Shown: positions 8,366 through 16,137 of the stretch, one piece after another
Position numbering within the stretch: the stretch's first letter is position 1
How the letters are laid out: each line of letters starts with the position of its first letter
Assembly: GCA_021201735.1 (NCBI GenBank)
Contig: JAJQEJ010000055.1
Span: forward strand, 4,650 to 68,649
Direction: 5' to 3'
DNA length: 64,000 nucleotides
DNA from: Oscillospiraceae bacterium
GTDB taxonomy: Bacteria > Bacillota > Clostridia > Oscillospirales > Oscillospiraceae
Notes under the pieces: generated by a model
The model's input: the letters and a program-made list of their open reading frames with translations, nothing else
What the model was told of the DNA's origin: nothing
The model's database searches: none
Made by a program: the position numbers and the translations under genes

Positions 8366-8393
8366 ACCGGTTTGATCTGCACTACATAGAATA
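8366..8393 (+). promoter_or_regulatory. Mother-cell (sigma-K-like) promoter motif of beta-helix paralog 1
   Basis: AC at 8366-8367, exactly 17 nt of spacer, then CATAGAATA at 8385-8393. This fits AC-N17-CATAnnnTA. It lies 49 nt upstream of the ATG. Confidence 0.55.
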
Positions 8394-8441
8394 CGATAAC
8401 TCCTGTAAGAGACAACAATACTTTGACAATGGAGTAATCGT

Positions 8442-11357
8442 ATGTATATTCTTAATCAACTTGCGCTTCCAGATAACTGTGCCGAACGGAACGTCACCCG
8501 ACGGATTCTGCCAAGAAGCATTCCAGGCGGATATCTGGTCTATGCGACCCCTGATTTGTCCACTGTTTTGTATGCAGAGGACACGCTTTCGGCGGCGTTT
8601 ACCGACATCAACAATGACACCAGCGGTATCACCGCGTTTACCGTGGTGGCGACCGGTGATGATGCTGATGTCGGCGAGACTGCGAACCTGACCACGAACA
8701 AGACCGTCACCCTTACATCGCCCGCCGGGGCAAATTCCATTTTGCGCAAGGGCGCGAACGACAGACATATCCTCTTAACCGCAGGGGAGCTTGTGCTCAC
8801 CAACATCACACTCGACGGCAATGGGTTTAGCGGCGGCTTATCCATTACTGGCGCTTCCCTCATCATAGAGGACGGCGCGGTGATTCGCAACAATGTCAGC
8901 ACCGGCACCGGCGTCGGTATCCTGGTTTCTCACGGCACCTTCCTGATGCGTGGCGGAGAAATTTACAACAATATCAACACCTCCGATTTTGGCGCAAGCG
9001 GCGGCGGGGTATATCTTGGCACTACGCTCACGGCGGGTGAATATTCCGGAAGCTACGGCTTTATGGAAGGCGGAAAAATCTATGGGAATCAAAACTACTG
9101 GGGCGGCGGCGTAGCCGTTGGGATTTTCAGCCACTTCACGATGTCCGGCGGCGAGATTTTTAACAACCTTGCGACCAATGCCGGCGGCGTAGATGTATAT
9201 GTCAGAGCGATCTTCACCATGAATGGCGGAAGTATTTACAACAATACCGCTGCCTCCAGTAGCGGCACAACCGGATCCGGCGGCGGCGTATTTGTGGGGC
9301 AAGGAACCCATGTGGCCGGTGAACCGACGGACTGGTGCAGATTCATCATGAACAGCGGCAGCGTGGAGGGCAACAGCTGCATTACCGGTGGCGGCGGCGT
9401 TGCGCTGATCTATAACGGGCAGATGGAGATGAACGGCGGAAGCATCTCCAATAACCGCACCAGCAGTGCCGGTGGCGGTGTGCTTCTTCGTATCGTAGAT
9501 CGGACGGACTTAACCACGCCGATGTACTTCAAAATGTCAGGTGGCACAGTGTCGGGCAATGAGGCCAGATTCGGCGGCGGCATCTGCCTGTATGATTATG
9601 ACGTGATATCCTTTGCCAAAGAAGTTATGCTTACGATAACCGGCGGGGTGATTACAGGGAACACGGCCACACCCCAATATGGCGGCGGGATTGTTGTGGT
9701 AAGGTATCCCACAAACCCTGACACGGTCACCTTTGAGATCGGCAGCCCAACAGAAAGCGAAACCGCCGCGCCGGTAATCAGTGGCAATCAAGCTGCCACT
9801 ACCGGCGGCGGTATCCAAATTTTAAATGTCACGCTTACCATGTATGCCGGTATGGTCAGTGGAAATGCAGCGGTAGACAACGGTGGCGGCATTGTTGTCT
9901 CCACAGGGAGTACACTCATCATGCCTGGAGGCTCCATTGAGGGAAATACTTCGGGTAGCAATGGCGGCGGCATATGGGTCTCCGCCAGCGGGACAGCGAA
10001 CCTCAGCGGTGCAACCACGATCATCAATAACACCGCCACAAACGAGGGCGGCGGAATCTATACGGCGGATTTTACAGACTATGCAAACCTGACCGCGAGC
10101 GACTATCAAAATATCACGACGGCAAACACGGTTGTGTTCGGCGGAAATTCCGCTTCGGCGGCTTATGAGCCGCCCGCCATCGCGTCCAGCTATACCAATA
10201 TCGGCTATGCATCCACCAGCATTGTGGGCAGCGGTGGCTTTCTGAACCCGATTAACAACTACGATATCAACTATGTCTTCCCGCCCAGTCTTCTTGTTTA
10301 CGCGGTATCTTACAATGCAAACGGCGGTGTCGGCAGCTATCCGACGGAATATTTTGTGGAGGGCACCGAATATACAGTGCTCTCGCCGGAGGAGACGGGC
10401 ATCAGCCGCCCGGGTTACACCTTCACCGGCTGGAATACCCAGCCCAACGGCACCGGAACCGCGTACCAGCCGGGGGATACCTTTGTGATTACTGAAGATG
10501 TCAACCTCTACGCCCAGTGGGAGGCGGTCGCAGGCACGGTCTCCGTGCTCTATGATTCCAACGGCGGTACCGGCAGCCATGCGGATGTAGGCCTTCCCAT
10601 CGGGACAGAATACACCATTCTCACACCGGAGGAGATAGGAATCAGCCGCCCGGGCTATACCTTCGTCGGCTGGAATACCCAGCCCAACGGAACCGGCACC
10701 GCGTACCAGCCGGGGGATACCGTTGTCTTGACCGAGAATCTGATCCTATACGCCCAGTGGGTCACCGTCCTGGGGCCCTACGATGTGCTCTACGAAGCCA
10801 ACGGCGGCACCGGCATCTTTGTGGATACCGGCATTCCCGGCGGCACGATATACACCATTCTCACACCGGAAGCGACAGTGATCAGCCGCCCCGGCTACGT
10901 CTTCACCGGCTGGAATACCCAACCCGACGGAAGCGGCATCACGTACCAGCCGGGGAATACGGTGACGATCAACGAGAATCTGACGCTCTACGCCCAGTGG
11001 ACTCCGATGATGGTAGCGTTCCATGTAATCTATAACGCCAACGGCGGCACCGGCGGATTTACGGATACCGTGCTCTACGGTACCCTATACGACGTCCTCT
11101 CCTCCTCGGAGGTGGGGATCACCCGCCCGGGCTACACCTTTACCGGCTGGAACACGCAGCCCGACGGCAGCGGCACCGCGTACCAGGTCGGCGATACGAT
11201 CCTCATCACCGGCGACGTGACACTCTATGCCCAGTGGGTGGCAAACGAAGCGCCGGTCCCTCCGGTATGCTGCATCCCGTGCTGCAACATCTGTTGTCCT
11301 CCATGCTGTATACCTTGTACCAACAAAAAGACAAACTGCCATACAAGAGTATGGTAA
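8442..11357 (+). CDS. Beta-helix / Flg_new-repeat protein, no signal peptide, Cys-rich C-terminal tail (paralog 1)
   Basis: 971 aa. The N-terminus MYILNQLALPDNCAERNVTRR has no hydrophobic segment. There are about 550 aa of GGG[IV]-type turns typical of right-handed parallel beta-helices, then 4 Listeria-Bacteroides (Flg_new) repeats (..NANGGTG..GYTFTGWNTQPDGSGTAY..LYAQW). The tail is VCCIPCCNICCPPCCIPCTNKKTNCHTRVW. Confidence 0.85.
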   Translation: MYILNQLALPDNCAERNVTRRILPRSIPGGYLVYATPDLSTVLYAEDTLSAAFTDINNDTSGITAFTVVATGDDADVGETANLTTNKTVTLTSPAGANSILRKGANDRHILLTAGELVLTNITLDGNGFSGGLSITGASLIIEDGAVIRNNVSTGTGVGILVSHGTFLMRGGEIYNNINTSDFGASGGGVYLGTTLTAGEYSGSYGFMEGGKIYGNQNYWGGGVAVGIFSHFTMSGGEIFNNLATNAGGVDVYVRAIFTMNGGSIYNNTAASSSGTTGSGGGVFVGQGTHVAGEPTDWCRFIMNSGSVEGNSCITGGGGVALIYNGQMEMNGGSISNNRTSSAGGGVLLRIVDRTDLTTPMYFKMSGGTVSGNEARFGGGICLYDYDVISFAKEVMLTITGGVITGNTATPQYGGGIVVVRYPTNPDTVTFEIGSPTESETAAPVISGNQAATTGGGIQILNVTLTMYAGMVSGNAAVDNGGGIVVSTGSTLIMPGGSIEGNTSGSNGGGIWVSASGTANLSGATTIINNTATNEGGGIYTADFTDYANLTASDYQNITTANTVVFGGNSASAAYEPPAIASSYTNIGYASTSIVGSGGFLNPINNYDINYVFPPSLLVYAVSYNANGGVGSYPTEYFVEGTEYTVLSPEETGISRPGYTFTGWNTQPNGTGTAYQPGDTFVITEDVNLYAQWEAVAGTVSVLYDSNGGTGSHADVGLPIGTEYTILTPEEIGISRPGYTFVGWNTQPNGTGTAYQPGDTVVLTENLILYAQWVTVLGPYDVLYEANGGTGIFVDTGIPGGTIYTILTPEATVISRPGYVFTGWNTQPDGSGITYQPGNTVTINENLTLYAQWTPMMVAFHVIYNANGGTGGFTDTVLYGTLYDVLSSSEVGITRPGYTFTGWNTQPDGSGTAYQVGDTILITGDVTLYAQWVANEAPVPPVCCIPCCNICCPPCCIPCTNKKTNCHTRVW
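10299..11237 (+). repeat. Four tandem ~78-aa Flg_new (Listeria-Bacteroides) coding repeats in paralog 1
   Basis: Each unit starts Y/F-x-V-x-Y-x-x-NGG and ends LYAQW. The units are very similar to each other at the DNA level. Confidence 0.8.
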
Positions 11358-14627: not shown

Positions 14628-14667
14628 GGATATCAATAATACATACATACTAGGGGTGAATCATCAT

Positions 14668-16137
14668 ATGTCGCAATGTAATCGTTTCCCATATAAGGGA
14701 ACCAACCCCCCGTTTCCCCGCTACAACAACTGCTGGTGCGTACCTATCTCCTGCTGCAACAGCACTGGACAGACAGGAGTTACAGGCCCAACAGGGCCAA
14801 CCGGCGCGACAGGCCCAACAGGCGCGACAGGCGCGGCGGGCGTAAGCAATATTACCGGCCCCACAGGGCCAACCGGTACGCAAGGCCCGACCGGCCCGCA
14901 GGGTCCGCAAGGAATTCAGGGTATCGCAGGCGCACAGGGACCGACCGGCCCACAGGGTCTGCAAGGGATTCAGGGTGTGGAAGGACCAGAGGGCCCGACC
15001 GGCCCACAGGGCCTGCAAGGGGCTCAGGGTGGCGAAGGACCAGAGGGTCCGACCGGCCCACAGGGCCTGCAGGGAGTGCAGGGCGTCGAAGGACCAGAGG
15101 GTCCGACCGGTCCAGAGGGACTGCAAGGCATTCAGGGTATCGAAGGACCTGCAGGTCCGACCGGCCCGCAGGGAGTGCAAGGCATTCAGGGTATCGAAGG
15201 TGTAGCGGGTCCGACCGGCCCACAGGGCCTGCAAGGCGTGCAGGGTGTGGAAGGTCCAGAAGGCCCGACCGGCCCGCAGGGCCTGCAAGGTGTGCAGGGC
15301 CTGCAAGGTGTGCAGGGTGTGGAAGGTCCGGAGGGTCCGACCGGTCCAGAGGGCCTGCAAGGCATTCAGGGTAGCGAAGGACCAGAGGGCCCGACCGGCC
15401 CACAGGGCCTGCAAGGAATTCAAGGTATTGAAGGCGTAGCGGGCCCAACTGGCCCACAGGGCCTACAAGGCATTCAGGGTGGCGAAGGACCAGAGGGTCC
15501 GACCGGCCCACAGGGCATACAAGGTATTCAGGGCGTCGAAGGACCAGAAGGCCCGGCTGGTCCGCAAGGACTGCAAGGGATACAAGGCGAAGAGGGACCA
15601 GAAGGTCCGCAAGGTGTTCAAGGGATACAGGGTCCCGCAGGACCGCAGGGCATTCAAGGCGTCGAAGGCCCACAGGGCCCGTCAGGCGCTGAGGGTGCCA
15701 CAGGAGATACCGGTCCCACCGGGGCAAACGGCGCGATTCCCAGCGCGGTTTTTCAAGCCGATCTCTCCGCCTCCGGCAGTACTTTTGAGGTGACGGTGGG
15801 GGACGTCATTTACCGTTTAGAAGTTGTCAACACCGCGGAGCTGAGGTTATTGATCCTGCCCGCCACCGCACCGGTCCTGATCGATTTGAAGCGTTTTGGT
15901 CAATTTGACTCTGGTGGTCTTGATGCGACTACCTTGGATAACTTTACGCTCTCCACCAGCGTAAATATTGATACCGTCATATTCAATTCGTCCAGAGAAA
16001 TGCACAGGACCTGGCTGCGGCAGCAGAGTCCTGAAACCGGCTTGTGGTCCTTGGACGAAATAGACCTTTTTGTTTCCAATGGCAGTGCCAGAATCACCAT
16101 CTGGGTATACCAAATCTTCACGAATGTAAGCCTTTGA
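14668..16137 (+). CDS. BclA-like collagen-repeat protein (candidate exosporium/spore-surface filament)
   Basis: Start chosen at the ATG at 14668 (RBS AGGGGTG 9 nt upstream); the ORF track starts at the GTG at 14656. The Cys-rich N-terminus is [30 protein letters not shown]. About 107 G-X-Y triplets follow, then a 134-aa non-repetitive C-terminal domain. No signal peptide. Confidence 0.85.
14767..15732 (+). repeat. Collagen-like G-X-Y coding repeat, with a 54-bp higher-order array at 14938-15603
   Basis: 322 aa of GXY with one non-Gly triplet (NIT). Inside it are 12 units of the 18-aa pattern [18 protein letters not shown]; unit 7 carries two extra triplets. Confidence 0.9.

Follow-up and report, generated by a model that had tools for sequence, protein, structure and literature searches.

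Three genes, hereafter g1, g2 and g3, are probably late mother-cell (sigma-K-type) sporulation genes, with products that would be fixed on the spore surface; we put the probability of this reading at about 0.6. The lack of an export signal, a late-sporulation-type promoter motif and a terminus packed with cysteines together make synthesis in the mother cell and fixation on the spore surface the most likely explanation. We infer sigma-K dependence, spore localization, disulfide anchoring and adhesive function from the sequence, and the trio could plausibly be a variant of spore-surface display. If so, the spore surface would bear adhesin-type binding domains beside a collagen nap.

Domain architecture of the three gene products

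The three genes are neighbours on one strand in a gut Oscillospiraceae bacterium and were analyzed within a stretch of 64,000 nucleotides, called the window (Table 1). A sequence-only reading had described three same-strand genes, two of them encoding a beta-helix and four Flg_new repeats, and open reading frames, Pfam searches and the AlphaFold model agree with this. Flg_new was found in four stretches of each of these two proteins (E=1e-53 for g1, E=1e-55 for g2). The beta-helix of g1 and g2 received no Pfam call; it is backed by a POMP_repeat match and by the AlphaFold model, which has repeated strand triplets over residues about 30-615 (mean pLDDT 87) and gave weak Foldseek matches to AlgG/AlgE4, HxuA, a phage tailspike and Rhombotarget A. 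The g2 protein has the architecture of g1, Cys tail included, and its start is placed 13 codons too late in the public annotation (P0002). Identity between the two paralogs is 66-84% in the beta-helix and 86-96% in the Flg_new repeats and tail; the beta-helix, which diverges faster, is likely the ligand-binding part.

The g3 product comprises a 33-aa Cys-rich head, exactly 107 GXY triplets (about 107 had been counted) and a 132-aa all-beta C-domain, the globular domain of the earlier description. Its stalk was recovered in the profile searches as Collagen (E=9e-49).

Table 1. Coordinates of the features described, in positions of the window unless residues are indicated
Feature	Position	Strand	Description
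Sigma-K-type motif of g1	8366..8393	+	ACcggtttgatctgcactaCATAgaaTA; end 49 nt before ATG
g1	8442-11357	+	971 aa
g1 N-terminus	residues 1-23		disordered, signal peptide absent
g1 right-handed beta-helix	residues about 30-615
g1 four Flg_new (InlB B-repeat) domains	residues 619-934
g1 Pro-rich linker and Cys-rich tail	residues 935-971		VCCIPCCNICCPPCCIPC...C
g1 Cys-rich C-terminal tail	11244..11354	+	10 Cys in 24 residues, predicted disordered
Hairpin after g1	11366..11404	+	GC-rich; not a canonical terminator because it has no T-run
Sigma-K-type motif of g2	11434..11461	+	ACcggttagatctttgccgCATAgaaTA; end 49 nt before ATG
g2	11510-14428	+	972 aa; paralog of g1, 84% identity
Hairpin after g2	14434..14477	+
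Sigma-K-type motif of g3	14600..14627	+	ACctgtaaggtcatcgcgaCATAtgaTA; end 41 nt before ATG 14668
g3	14668-16137	+	489 aa from ATG; 493 aa from GTG 14656
g3 globular C-domain	15739..16134	+	10-strand beta-sandwich, AlphaFold pLDDT 95
Hairpin between convergent g3 and g4	16185..16220		strong, 16 bp; T-run on minus strand
g4	16389..19805	-	1138 aa; Sec-signal + 3xSLH paralog of g1/g2
tgl, spore-coat protein-glutamine gamma-glutamyltransferase	43565-44392	-	PF20085, E=7e-89

Export signals and cysteine-dense termini

The first possible starts of g1, g2 and g3 are preceded by in-frame stop codons at distances of 5, 11 and 9 codons, so that a signal peptide cannot come from an earlier start, as had been proposed. 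Pfam searches detected no SLH or other anchor domain in the three proteins, and no LPXTG signal was found in them. The claim that transmembrane helices are absent also holds, the only two hydrophobic windows being borderline and both within the proline-rich tail of g2.

The 120 best homologs were then divided by their C-terminus, a homolog being counted as Cys-tailed when its last 60 residues contain 9 or more Cys. A Sec-type N-terminus was found in none of the 8 Cys-tailed homologs, versus 77 of the 101 other complete ones (Fisher p=3e-5), and the homologs with a Sec signal bear SLH or transmembrane anchors in place of the Cys tail. The Cys tail and the signal-less state therefore co-occur across homologs. 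Sec signals in relatives had been named as a possible sign of a mis-called start; they do occur, outside the Cys-tailed group, and the missing signal peptide is genuine, a feature conserved in the Cys-tailed subfamily, and does not stem from a mis-called start. SLH- or TM-anchored clostridial proteins such as g4 and P0006-P0009 have a homologous passenger, 37-45% identical in the beta-helix and Flg_new repeats, and carry a Sec signal with an SLH or TM anchor, whereas g1 and g2 have neither and end in a Cys tail. The g4 gene, which adjoins the trio and has no sigma-K motif upstream, offers an internal contrast. Its residues 30-896 align to residues 49-935 of g1, with 37% identity to g1/g2 across the beta-helix and Flg_new region; in g1, a unique N-terminus and the Cys tail replace the signal peptide and SLH domains.

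Each of the three proteins has a Cys cluster at one terminus, as the sequence-only reading had noticed. In g1 and g2 the clusters span residues 943-966 and 944-967, each with 10 Cys in 24 residues in a periodic (CCxx)4C arrangement, and no other stretch of the 64-kb window, in any of the six frames, is as dense in Cys as these two tails. The head of g3 has Cys at positions 4, 22, 24, 29 and 30. An unrelated contig (L003) encodes four signal-less proteins with a Cys tail, two of them having DUF11 passengers; the Cys tail is thus a module portable between passengers. In all loci, a Cys-dense terminus never coincides with a signal peptide, and the cluster is always C-terminal on beta-helix or DUF11 proteins and N-terminal on collagen proteins. 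The tails look loosely tripartite: a linker rich in Pro leads into a hydrophobic stretch rich in Cys, and basic residues follow. In the tails of L003, 10-11 hydrophobic residues stand in a row. We propose that the g1 tail may act as an anchor or cross-linking module.

Promoter motifs and genomic surroundings

A mother-cell-type promoter motif had been reported before each gene. The sigma-K-type motif AC-N17-CATAnnnTA, which has only 8 specified bases, occurs five times in the window versus 0.71 expected, and three of these five copies, at 8366, 11434 and 14600, lie directly 5' of g1, g2 and g3. A ribosome-binding site (GGAG) is located 7 nt 5' of the g1 ATG. The motif is kept in the orthologous loci L004 and L005, the g3 copy being kept in L004. 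Among 215 ORFs surveyed, 13 bear the motif, of which 11 encode signal-less Cys-tail, collagen or related proteins and span about 7 independent lineages; the exact motif was found in none of six signal-peptide/SLH controls. Cys-tail homologs without the exact motif are P0004 and P0023 (one mismatch each) and P0024 (no copy). Most metagenomic members of the g3 family have no motif within 200 nt, and many are apparently in operons.

The anticipated Tgl gene lies 27.4 kb downstream of the trio. As the sporulation gene recognized in the window, where no other was found, tgl points to an endospore-forming host. Synteny of the trio in related genomes was seen, as had been envisaged, in L004 and L005, and is limited to these very close relatives.

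A rather unlikely explanation is that the three genes encode vegetative surface or secreted proteins leaving the cell by a Sec-independent route. This could be holin/lysis-dependent release, an ABC-type exporter or an unrecognized system for which the Cys-rich, hydrophobic and basic C-terminal tail would serve as a signal for secretion or sorting, or as a membrane tail-anchor. Vegetative surface proteins typically have such passenger domains, SLH/Flg_new surface proteins are abundant in the region, and the tripartite tails with the hydrophobic run in L003 would fit, as would a sigma-70-like site (TTCACA-16-TAGAAT) about 110 nt 5' of g3. However, all known C-terminal sorting signals work after Sec export and require an N-terminal signal peptide, and none of the three proteins has one. 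The tails, being proline-rich and predicted to be disordered, do not suit a transmembrane helix, no exporter, holin or processing enzyme adjoins the genes in any locus, and the enrichment of the sigma-K-type motif would stay unexplained.

Comparison with spore-surface systems and phage fibres

As late sporulation products, the three proteins would be made in the mother-cell cytoplasm, never cross a membrane and assemble on the outside of the spore, in its outer coat or an exosporium-like outermost layer. Their Cys-dense, proline-rich termini would fix them by docking into a Cys-rich basal layer or, alternatively, by disulfides to that layer and among the termini after mother-cell lysis. The anchor would be placed at whichever end must be proximal: C-terminal on the beta-helix/Flg_new proteins, so that the beta-helix would face outward, and N-terminal on the collagen protein, so that the globular head would tip a stalk about 300 residues long.

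Spore-surface docking or cross-linking through Cys-rich termini has published precedents. The tip fibrillum of L-ENA endospore appendages, L-BclA, lacks an exosporium leader; through its N-terminal CC motif it is proposed to dock into the Cys-containing partner Ena3A and bond to it by disulfide. Ena subunits are joined covalently via Cys in short terminal connectors (PMC11362473). Like L-BclA, g3 is collagen-like, without exosporium leader and with N-terminal Cys; unlike in the L-BclA/Ena system, the window contains no Ena (DUF3992/DUF4183) gene, and the Cys clusters are far denser (5-13 Cys) and also C-terminal on large non-collagen passengers. Spore envelopes generally have Cys-rich, disulfide-stabilized layers, with CsxA, CdeC and ExsY as Cys-rich surface scaffolds (bioRxiv 10.64898/2026.09.03.749163). 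The trio is Cys-dense like CotY/ExsY, CdeC/CdeM and CsxA/CsxC, which belong to the outermost spore layers and form disulfides cooperatively (bioRxiv 10.64898/2026.09.03.749163; PMC6101409). In these scaffolds the Cys lie inside folded lattice-forming domains, whereas in the trio they occur within a disordered terminal segment (tail or head) of about 25-35 residues, the rest being Cys-poor, and no sequence or domain homology to the scaffolds was found. F-Anchor-3 of the Clostridial F-ENA is a spore-surface anchoring protein made partly of DUF11 domains (PMC12357932), so that "cell-surface" domains do serve on spores without Sec export; two of the Cys-tailed proteins of L003 likewise have DUF11 passengers. 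F-Anchor-3 differs in its proposed integration via a CsxA-like domain, not a Cys tail (PMC12357932), and the trio has no DUF4183 domain.

The missing signal, sigma-K motif and Cys tails would also fit unanchored mother-cell products, freed at lysis into a parasporal or extrasporal matrix or aggregate by self-association of the Cys tails, an arrangement that we consider quite improbable. Cry protoxins, with their Cys-rich C-terminal extension, are an analogue for such tails. Neither an exosporium leader motif nor a Cys-rich basal-layer partner (CotY/ExsY, CdeC, CsxA, Ena) was seen in or near the trio, and extrasporal matrices of Bacillus spores have been described (PMC12357932, PMC13111695), sporesilk and other extrasporal fibres being analogues. 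However, the Cys cluster and the globular or binding part always occupy opposite ends of the protein, which fits surface tethering better than bulk aggregation, and a collagen stalk with a distal head typifies attached naps and tip fibrillae (PMC11362473).

The g3 product was compared with BclA-type proteins (B. anthracis/cereus BclA, C. difficile BclA1-3 and C. sporogenes BclA/BclB). Like these, it is signal-less and has a long GXY stalk between a short N-terminal region and a globular head at the C-terminus, it has a motif corresponding to their mother-cell promoters, and its family shares with them collagen-gene clusters, sometimes with a glycosyltransferase. Unlike them, g3 lacks both a BclA_C/TNF-C1q head, by Pfam and by fold, and an exosporium leader motif of the B. 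cereus type; it has another beta-sandwich head, as in predicted phage fibre tips, and a Cys-cluster N-terminus. The label "BclA-like" given to g3 is apt only in part: g3 does not resemble BclA in its head, for which Pfam gave no BclA_C match, or in its targeting sequence. A TNF/C1q-like fold of the C-domain had been considered. No TNF/C1q/BclA match to its model was found in the PDB, and the model resembles predicted phage tail-fibre tips, its matches being predicted phage proteins (TM 0.76-0.79, rmsd 2.0-2.4 A), some of which are named tail-fibre or collagen-like proteins.

Phage collagen-like tail fibres share with g3 a collagen stalk and a distal beta-sandwich tip (predicted fold), but in g3 the Cys-rich head replaces the baseplate-attachment domain. 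That the trio is a phage-derived or phage-tail-like remnant, combining a beta-helix of tailspike type with a collagen-like tail fibre, is very unlikely: virion or tailocin parts are made in the cytoplasm, which would account for the absent signal peptides, and the C-domain fold, the weak tailspike matches and a "SAYxxA..GF.GT..EWL.SL" motif in a few g3-family members (which we take to be phage-fibre-like) would fit, but no phage gene was found near the trio (its neighbours are purF, glnA and an SLH protein, and its chromosomal site is likewise occupied in three related MAGs), 2.9 million viral contigs contain no sequence relatives of g1 or the g3 C-domain, each gene has a separate promoter motif, and Flg_new repeats and Cys-rich tails are not tail-fibre features. 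Metagenomic members of the g3 family, also in non-phage contexts, lie in chromosomal clusters of several collagen genes, one of which is accompanied by a GT2 glycosyltransferase. The C-domain family comprises at least 133 sequence clusters; many members combine a Cys-rich head, collagen and the C-domain, and some additionally carry a weak BclA_C-like domain.

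Architecture and setting of the three genes

The paralogous genes g1 and g2 and the collagen gene g3 form a trio on the plus strand. The g1 and g2 proteins share 84% identity overall, with 66-84% over the N-terminal 600 residues and 86-96% over the Flg_new repeats and the tail. A sequence-only reading had assigned four Flg_new repeats and a parallel beta-helix to both giants, and both assignments held. Pfam searches found Flg_new (PF09479) in four stretches of each protein (E=1e-53 for g1, E=1e-55 for g2). An AlphaFold model of g1 was built on a 36-sequence alignment (mean pLDDT 87) and analyzed with DSSP. 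In this model, residues ~30-615 form regular triplets of short strands in a right-handed beta-helix (pLDDT about 90), residues 619-934 form four compact beta-grasp-like domains, and both ends (residues 1-23 and 939-971) are disordered. A beta-helix also agrees with the recurring MxGGxIxxNxAxxxGGGV of the alignment consensus and with a match to the POMP_repeat family (TIGR01376) at 15.9 bits, barely over its cut-off of 15. Stacked three-strand coils together with the repeat signature predict a Pmp-like/pectin-lyase-fold parallel beta-helix. Foldseek matched the model to the InlB B-repeat 2y5p (TMt 0.74). The whole-model result was dominated by the tandem beta-grasp repeats, and PDB matches of the beta-helix were weak (AlgG, AlgE4, HxuA, Phi92 tailspike and Rhombotarget A). 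The faster divergence of the beta-helix between g1 and g2 would fit a role in ligand binding.

Good ribosome-binding sites precede ATG 8442, ATG 11510 and ATG 14668. The public annotation of g2 (P0002, 959 aa) begins 13 codons 3' of ATG 11510 (11510-11548); the longer N-terminus (MYINHLALPENC…) is kept in g1 and in the homologue P0003 and is preceded by a GGAG ribosome-binding site.

Coordinates of the genes, motifs and homologous loci discussed (window positions unless a locus is named)
Feature	Position	Strand	Remarks
g1	8442-11357	+	971 aa
g2	11510-14428	+	972 aa
g3	14656-16137	+	ATG also at 14668
g4 (Flg_new and/or SLH)	16389-19805	-	1138 aa
Flg_new and/or SLH gene	35485-37077	+	
Flg_new and/or SLH gene	37007-39226	+	
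Flg_new and/or SLH gene	41042-43498	-	
Flg_new and/or SLH gene	45833-48169	-	
tgl, spore-coat transglutaminase	43565-44392	-	PF20085 E=7e-89; NF002869 E=3e-88
ORF next to tgl	44389-45177	-	262 aa; no family match
ORF behind fourth motif	32931-33620	+	229 aa; weak PdaC/DUF3298 likeness (E=3e-5, 2e-4; below Pfam cut-offs); no signal peptide
Fourth sigma-K-type motif	32857-32884		exact
TTCACA-16-TAGAAT	14531-14558		sigma-70-like; ~110 nt 5' of g3
TTGACA-16-TATATT	8423-8450		sigma-70-like
Sigma-K-type motif	L002:1014-1041		exact
Two signal-less proteins	L002:1056-4910		~630-650 aa; no Cys tail
Cys-tailed genes, metagenome contig	L003:38-12917		
DUF11/Cys-tail gene	L003:10857		
N run	L004:7900-8000		within Flg_new repeats
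Collagen gene	L004:8489-9916		
Spurious antisense ORF	L004:8504-9391	-	over collagen repeats
Cys-headed collagen gene	L006:2154		
Two-headed collagen protein	L016:1557-3071		

The best database match to g1 was a 100% identical protein, [quoted passage not shown], on a 74,952-bp contig. Upstream of the trio lie dapF, an aminotransferase gene, an ANTAR regulator gene, glnA and purF, and downstream ftsH, pcrA/uvrD, hsp33, purA and fatty-acid synthesis genes. GC content is 54-59% over the locus, with no compositional break. A Tgl gene had been claimed downstream of the trio; its identity was established by profile match, and it is the sole sporulation marker verified in the window. The neighbouring ORF shares 4 nt with the tgl start and is therefore probably in one operon with it. 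The window is unusually dense in Flg_new and/or SLH surface proteins, whose genes are scattered among the housekeeping genes and flank tgl. In the related MAG GCA_965298985.1 (locus L004), a single beta-helix gene lies between purF and the collagen gene, and a run of N falls within its Flg_new repeats; a tandem duplicate may have collapsed in assembly, so that copy number in relatives is uncertain.

Export signals and Cys-dense termini

The trio had been described as free of signal peptides, TM helices, SLH domains and LPXTG signals, with no upstream start that could supply a signal, and this was confirmed throughout. In-frame stops lie 5, 11 and 9 codons 5' of the first possible starts of g1, g2 and g3, so no signal peptide can be added upstream. 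The N-termini of g1 and g2 lack a hydrophobic core (maximum KD over 12 residues of 1.1-1.3), Pfam detected no SLH or other anchor domain in the three proteins, and scans of the trio found neither LPXTG nor a credible TM segment. A putative sortase signal, SPETG at g3 residue 458, was rejected because it lies inside the folded head and no hydrophobic/basic tail follows it.

Sec-exported Flg_new (InlB B-repeat) surface proteins have the Flg_new repeats in common with g1 and g2, but carry a Sec signal peptide and an SLH, LPXTG, GW or TM anchor, both of which g1 and g2 lack. The paralogue g4, adjacent to g3 and convergently transcribed, offers a direct comparison. The mature part of g4 (residues 30-896) is 37% identical to g1 over g1 residues 49-935, and a unique 48-residue N-terminus and a 37-residue Cys tail in g1 replace the signal peptide and three SLH domains of g4. 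Sec signals in homologues had been named as a sign of a mis-called start. Homologues with classical signal peptides are indeed plentiful, but SLH domains or a TM/basic anchor form their C-termini (P0006-P0009, P0011, P0014, P0016 and P0020). Among the 120 best homologues, a Sec-type N-terminus was found in none of the eight Cys-tailed proteins and in 77 of 101 other complete proteins (Fisher p=2.8e-5), the eight coming from about five lineages and therefore not being fully independent. Proteins with 9 or more Cys among their last 60 residues were counted as Cys-tailed (P0001, P0002, P0004, P0005, P0010, P0013, P0023 and P0024), and Sec signals were called heuristically from hydrophobicity and charge, with inspection by eye. 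P0023 and P0024 have a short hydrophobic stretch near the N-terminus; it corresponds in the alignment to the first beta-strand of P0004 and P0010, and no basic residue comes before it.

The Cys clusters reported at one terminus of each protein were also found. The g1 and g2 tails hold 10 Cys in 24 residues with a strict (CCxx)4C period, no frame of the 64 kb has a denser Cys window, and the g3 head has five Cys in 33 residues. The termini of g3 (C-W-C-V-P-I-S-C-C) and g1 (C-C-I-P-C-C-N-I-C-C-P-P-C-C) are alike. Across every ORF of the window and 35 fetched loci, no protein with a Cys-dense terminus had a signal peptide. Which end carries the cluster goes with the passenger: beta-helix and DUF11 proteins have it at the C-terminus, collagen proteins at the N-terminus, as in g3 and its L004 orthologue, in the second of the L006 collagen genes, and in collagen genes of L023 and L024. 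In L003, from an unrelated, AT-rich organism, four signal-less proteins have a comparable tail, …DCC-LIILLLLLM-KCRPRKK-CCCKGCC…, on two beta-helix/Flg_new and two DUF11 (PF01345) passengers. The Cys tail thus appears, from the sequences, to be a portable module. Its portability is judged from L003 and the other loci in hand, since a tail-only search with an alignment of the eight tails, which gave no match, is unsuited to so short and low-complexity a query for a word index. None of the lattice domains of Cys-rich spore scaffolds (CotY/Z-ExsY, CdeC, and SPOCS/DUF3794 of CsxA) was matched in g1-g3 with Pfam or NCBIfam, and no homology to these scaffolds was found.

The L003 tails contain a run of 10-11 hydrophobic residues, and two TIR-domain genes and pyrF sit between the Cys-tailed genes of that contig. 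In L002, two signal-less proteins are encoded directly 5' of the Cys-tailed P0010; one has a Pectate_lyase_5 match, and WxL-like C-terminal motifs (…LTWAVHP…) can be read in their sequences.

Sigma-K-type motifs and a candidate spore-surface assignment

The window contains five copies of AC-N17-CATAnnnTA, a motif that we take to be the sigma-K consensus of B. subtilis/C. difficile; 0.71 copies would be expected, and 0 of 100 shuffles reached five. The claim that a mother-cell-type promoter motif precedes each gene proved correct: the motifs end 49, 49 and 41 nt before the start codons of g1, g2 and g3. Since g1 and g2 are paralogues, their promoters count as one event, and the g3 motif is independent. 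The fourth motif ends 47 nt before an ORF that may be another mother-cell gene, and the fifth lies inside g4 on the opposite strand.

The motif is kept in the orthologous loci L004 and L005 (CATAggaTA), which is weak footprinting because the whole upstream block is conserved there. More telling, as far as sequence comparison goes, are exact motifs upstream of P0013 in L003 (N16), of the DUF11/Cys-tail gene of the same contig, and of the first gene in the signal-less three-gene cluster of L002 that ends with P0010. Exact motifs also precede the Cys-headed collagen gene of L006 and the C-domain genes of L029 and L031. Over the non-overlapping ORFs of the window and all loci, 13 of 215 had an exact motif between -200 and +60, at a background rate of ~0.01 per 200 nt; these signal-less classes account for 11 of the 13, with about seven independent lineages represented among the 11. 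Exact motifs were absent upstream of all six signal-peptide/SLH genes used as controls. Elsewhere the motif is imperfect, with one mismatch for P0004 and P0023, or absent, as for P0024. Only 3 of 18 metagenomic g3-family genes, from 2 lineages, have a strict motif within 200 nt, and many appear to follow another gene directly; the promoter evidence does not seem to extend to the whole g3 C-domain family. No motif was seen by eye upstream of the tgl operon, so that it cannot be calibrated on a known sigma-K gene of the host.

The most economical reading of these data, to which we give a probability of roughly 0.6, is that g1-g3 are made late in the mother cell, assemble on the outside of the developing spore and are tethered by their Cys-dense termini, with the binding domain distal. 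Mother-cell synthesis and outside assembly would explain extracellular-type modules without an export signal. For g3, the evidence bearing on putative mother-cell (sigma-E/sigma-K) expression and a putative spore-surface location is a promoter-motif match. Each step has published precedents. L-BclA, which has no exosporium leader, is proposed to use its N-terminal CC motif for coupling into the Cys-containing lumen of Ena3A rings, and Ena subunits are disulfide-linked via short terminal connectors (PMC11362473). DUF11 domains are present in a Clostridial spore-appendage anchor (PMC12357932), and spore envelopes in general make use of Cys-rich layers with cooperative disulfide bonding (bioRxiv 10.64898/2026.09.03.749163). 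An Ena core domain (DUF3992 or DUF4183) was not found among the ORFs scanned in the window, and our literature search, of limited reach, returned no paper linking Flg_new, beta-helix or Cys-tail proteins to spores.

Two other readings concern where such proteins would end up. Sec-independent export from vegetative cells, or a tail anchor, is unlikely; a sigma-70-like TTCACA-16-TAGAAT is a possible vegetative promoter of g3, and a second such sequence, TTGACA-16-TATATT, was ruled out for g1 because it overlaps the start codon. A close variant of spore-surface assembly, in which the mother-cell products form a parasporal or extrasporal matrix and are not anchored, has a rather low probability, below that of vegetative export.

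Spores are the route by which most gut Clostridia pass between hosts, and we know of almost nothing on the spore covering outside Bacillus, C. difficile and C. sporogenes. Signal-less spore-surface proteins made in the mother cell, including a collagen nap and Cys-mediated fixation, are an already known kind. The novelty would lie in the adhesin-type beta-helix/Flg_new passenger (DUF11 elsewhere), in a head that is not of BclA type and, most of all, in a compact and portable Cys-rich terminus standing in for the signal peptide and SLH pair of vegetative paralogues. Going further, we tentatively propose that a short Cys/Pro-rich disordered terminus (for example (CCxx)n or CCC-x-C) serves in Clostridia as a portable, Sec-independent spore-surface anchor that re-deploys vegetative-type adhesin domains as signal-less copies expressed under sigma-K promoters. 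Such an anchor module would represent a system for spore display that had gone unrecognised in gut Oscillospiraceae and their relatives, and its terminus would mark spore-surface proteins in uncultured anaerobes. The corresponding sequence rule would combine three features: no signal peptide, a terminus dense in Cys and a promoter of sigma-K type. If true, spores would for the first time be seen to carry adhesin-type passengers (beta-helix/Flg_new) and DUF11 passengers, with one passenger sent to two destinations, the vegetative wall (signal peptide and SLH) or the spore (Cys tail, no signal peptide). The terminus would then be a small candidate anchoring tag, directly testable and perhaps usable for spore display.

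The collagen protein and its C-terminal domain

The description of g3 as a collagen GXY protein with a globular C-domain was confirmed: it has a Pfam Collagen match (E=9e-49), exactly 107 GXY triplets, a 33-residue head and a 132-residue C-domain. The label "BclA-like" stood for the collagen region, which is common to BclA-type exosporium proteins, but not for the ends. PF18573 (BclA_C, the TNF/C1q-like jelly-roll head of BclA-type proteins) was not matched in g3 at E<=0.01. By direct reading, the 33-residue N-terminus is unlike the LIGPTLPPIPP-like sequence that we take to be the exosporium-targeting leader consensus of the B. cereus group. It is also unlike the F-Anchor leader IGPTFSALPPIYIPTG (quoted in PMC12357932).

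An AlphaFold model of the C-domain (44-sequence alignment, pLDDT 95.4) predicts a 10-strand beta-sandwich. The suggested BclA TNF/C1q-like fold was rejected: PDB sequences gave no profile match, and PDB structures gave no match with E<1e-3 or TM >0.4 and no BclA, C1q or TNF in the top 50. Predicted viral structures did match (A0A345MMW1, TM 0.79, rmsd 2.0 A; A0A6G5YMH7, TM 0.76), the named ones including a tail fibre of an Aeromonas phage and a collagen-like protein of an E. coli phage. From its model, the g3 head is best described as a tip fold like that of phage fibres, put to use in a class of proteins analogous to BclA. That the locus itself is a phage-derived module is very improbable: phage genes are absent nearby, where the neighbours are housekeeping or SLH genes; the site between purF and the SLH gene is filled likewise in three related MAGs; 2.9 million viral contigs (IMG/VR) held 0 sequence relatives of g1 or the C-domain; metagenomic C-domain members sit in chromosomal clusters of several collagen genes; and in some members collagen and the C-domain are joined by a weak BclA_C-like N-domain (E=0.002, short of the Pfam cut-off).

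Because gene callers overlook the collagen gene, the C-domain is hardly found among annotated proteins. A word-indexed search returned just two C-terminal fragments (113 and 115 aa). The g3 of the window is not in the protein collection, and in L004 only the 113-aa C-terminal fragment P0121 and a spurious antisense ORF were called. As automatic callers miss the gene systematically, protein databases under-represent the class. With HMMER, an exhaustive search gave a family of 133 clusters, 94 at E<1e-10, in which many members have a short Cys-rich head, collagen and the C-domain (MNCCRCRCCG…, MCDCFWCDKCCCYCCR…, MDGKCCRCCCKR…). A genome-collection scan with a narrower C-domain alignment yielded just two loci, both at contig edges, in MAGs that carry the label Hungatella sp. 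Neighbours of C-domain members include ABC transporters, two-component systems and toxin-antitoxin genes, and a GT2-TPR glycosyltransferase in L024. The "two-headed" collagen proteins, with the weak BclA_C-like N-domain, a stalk and a g3-type C-domain, occur in L016, L013, L019, L021, L022 and L027, and their genes often lie directly behind another gene with a similar N-domain.
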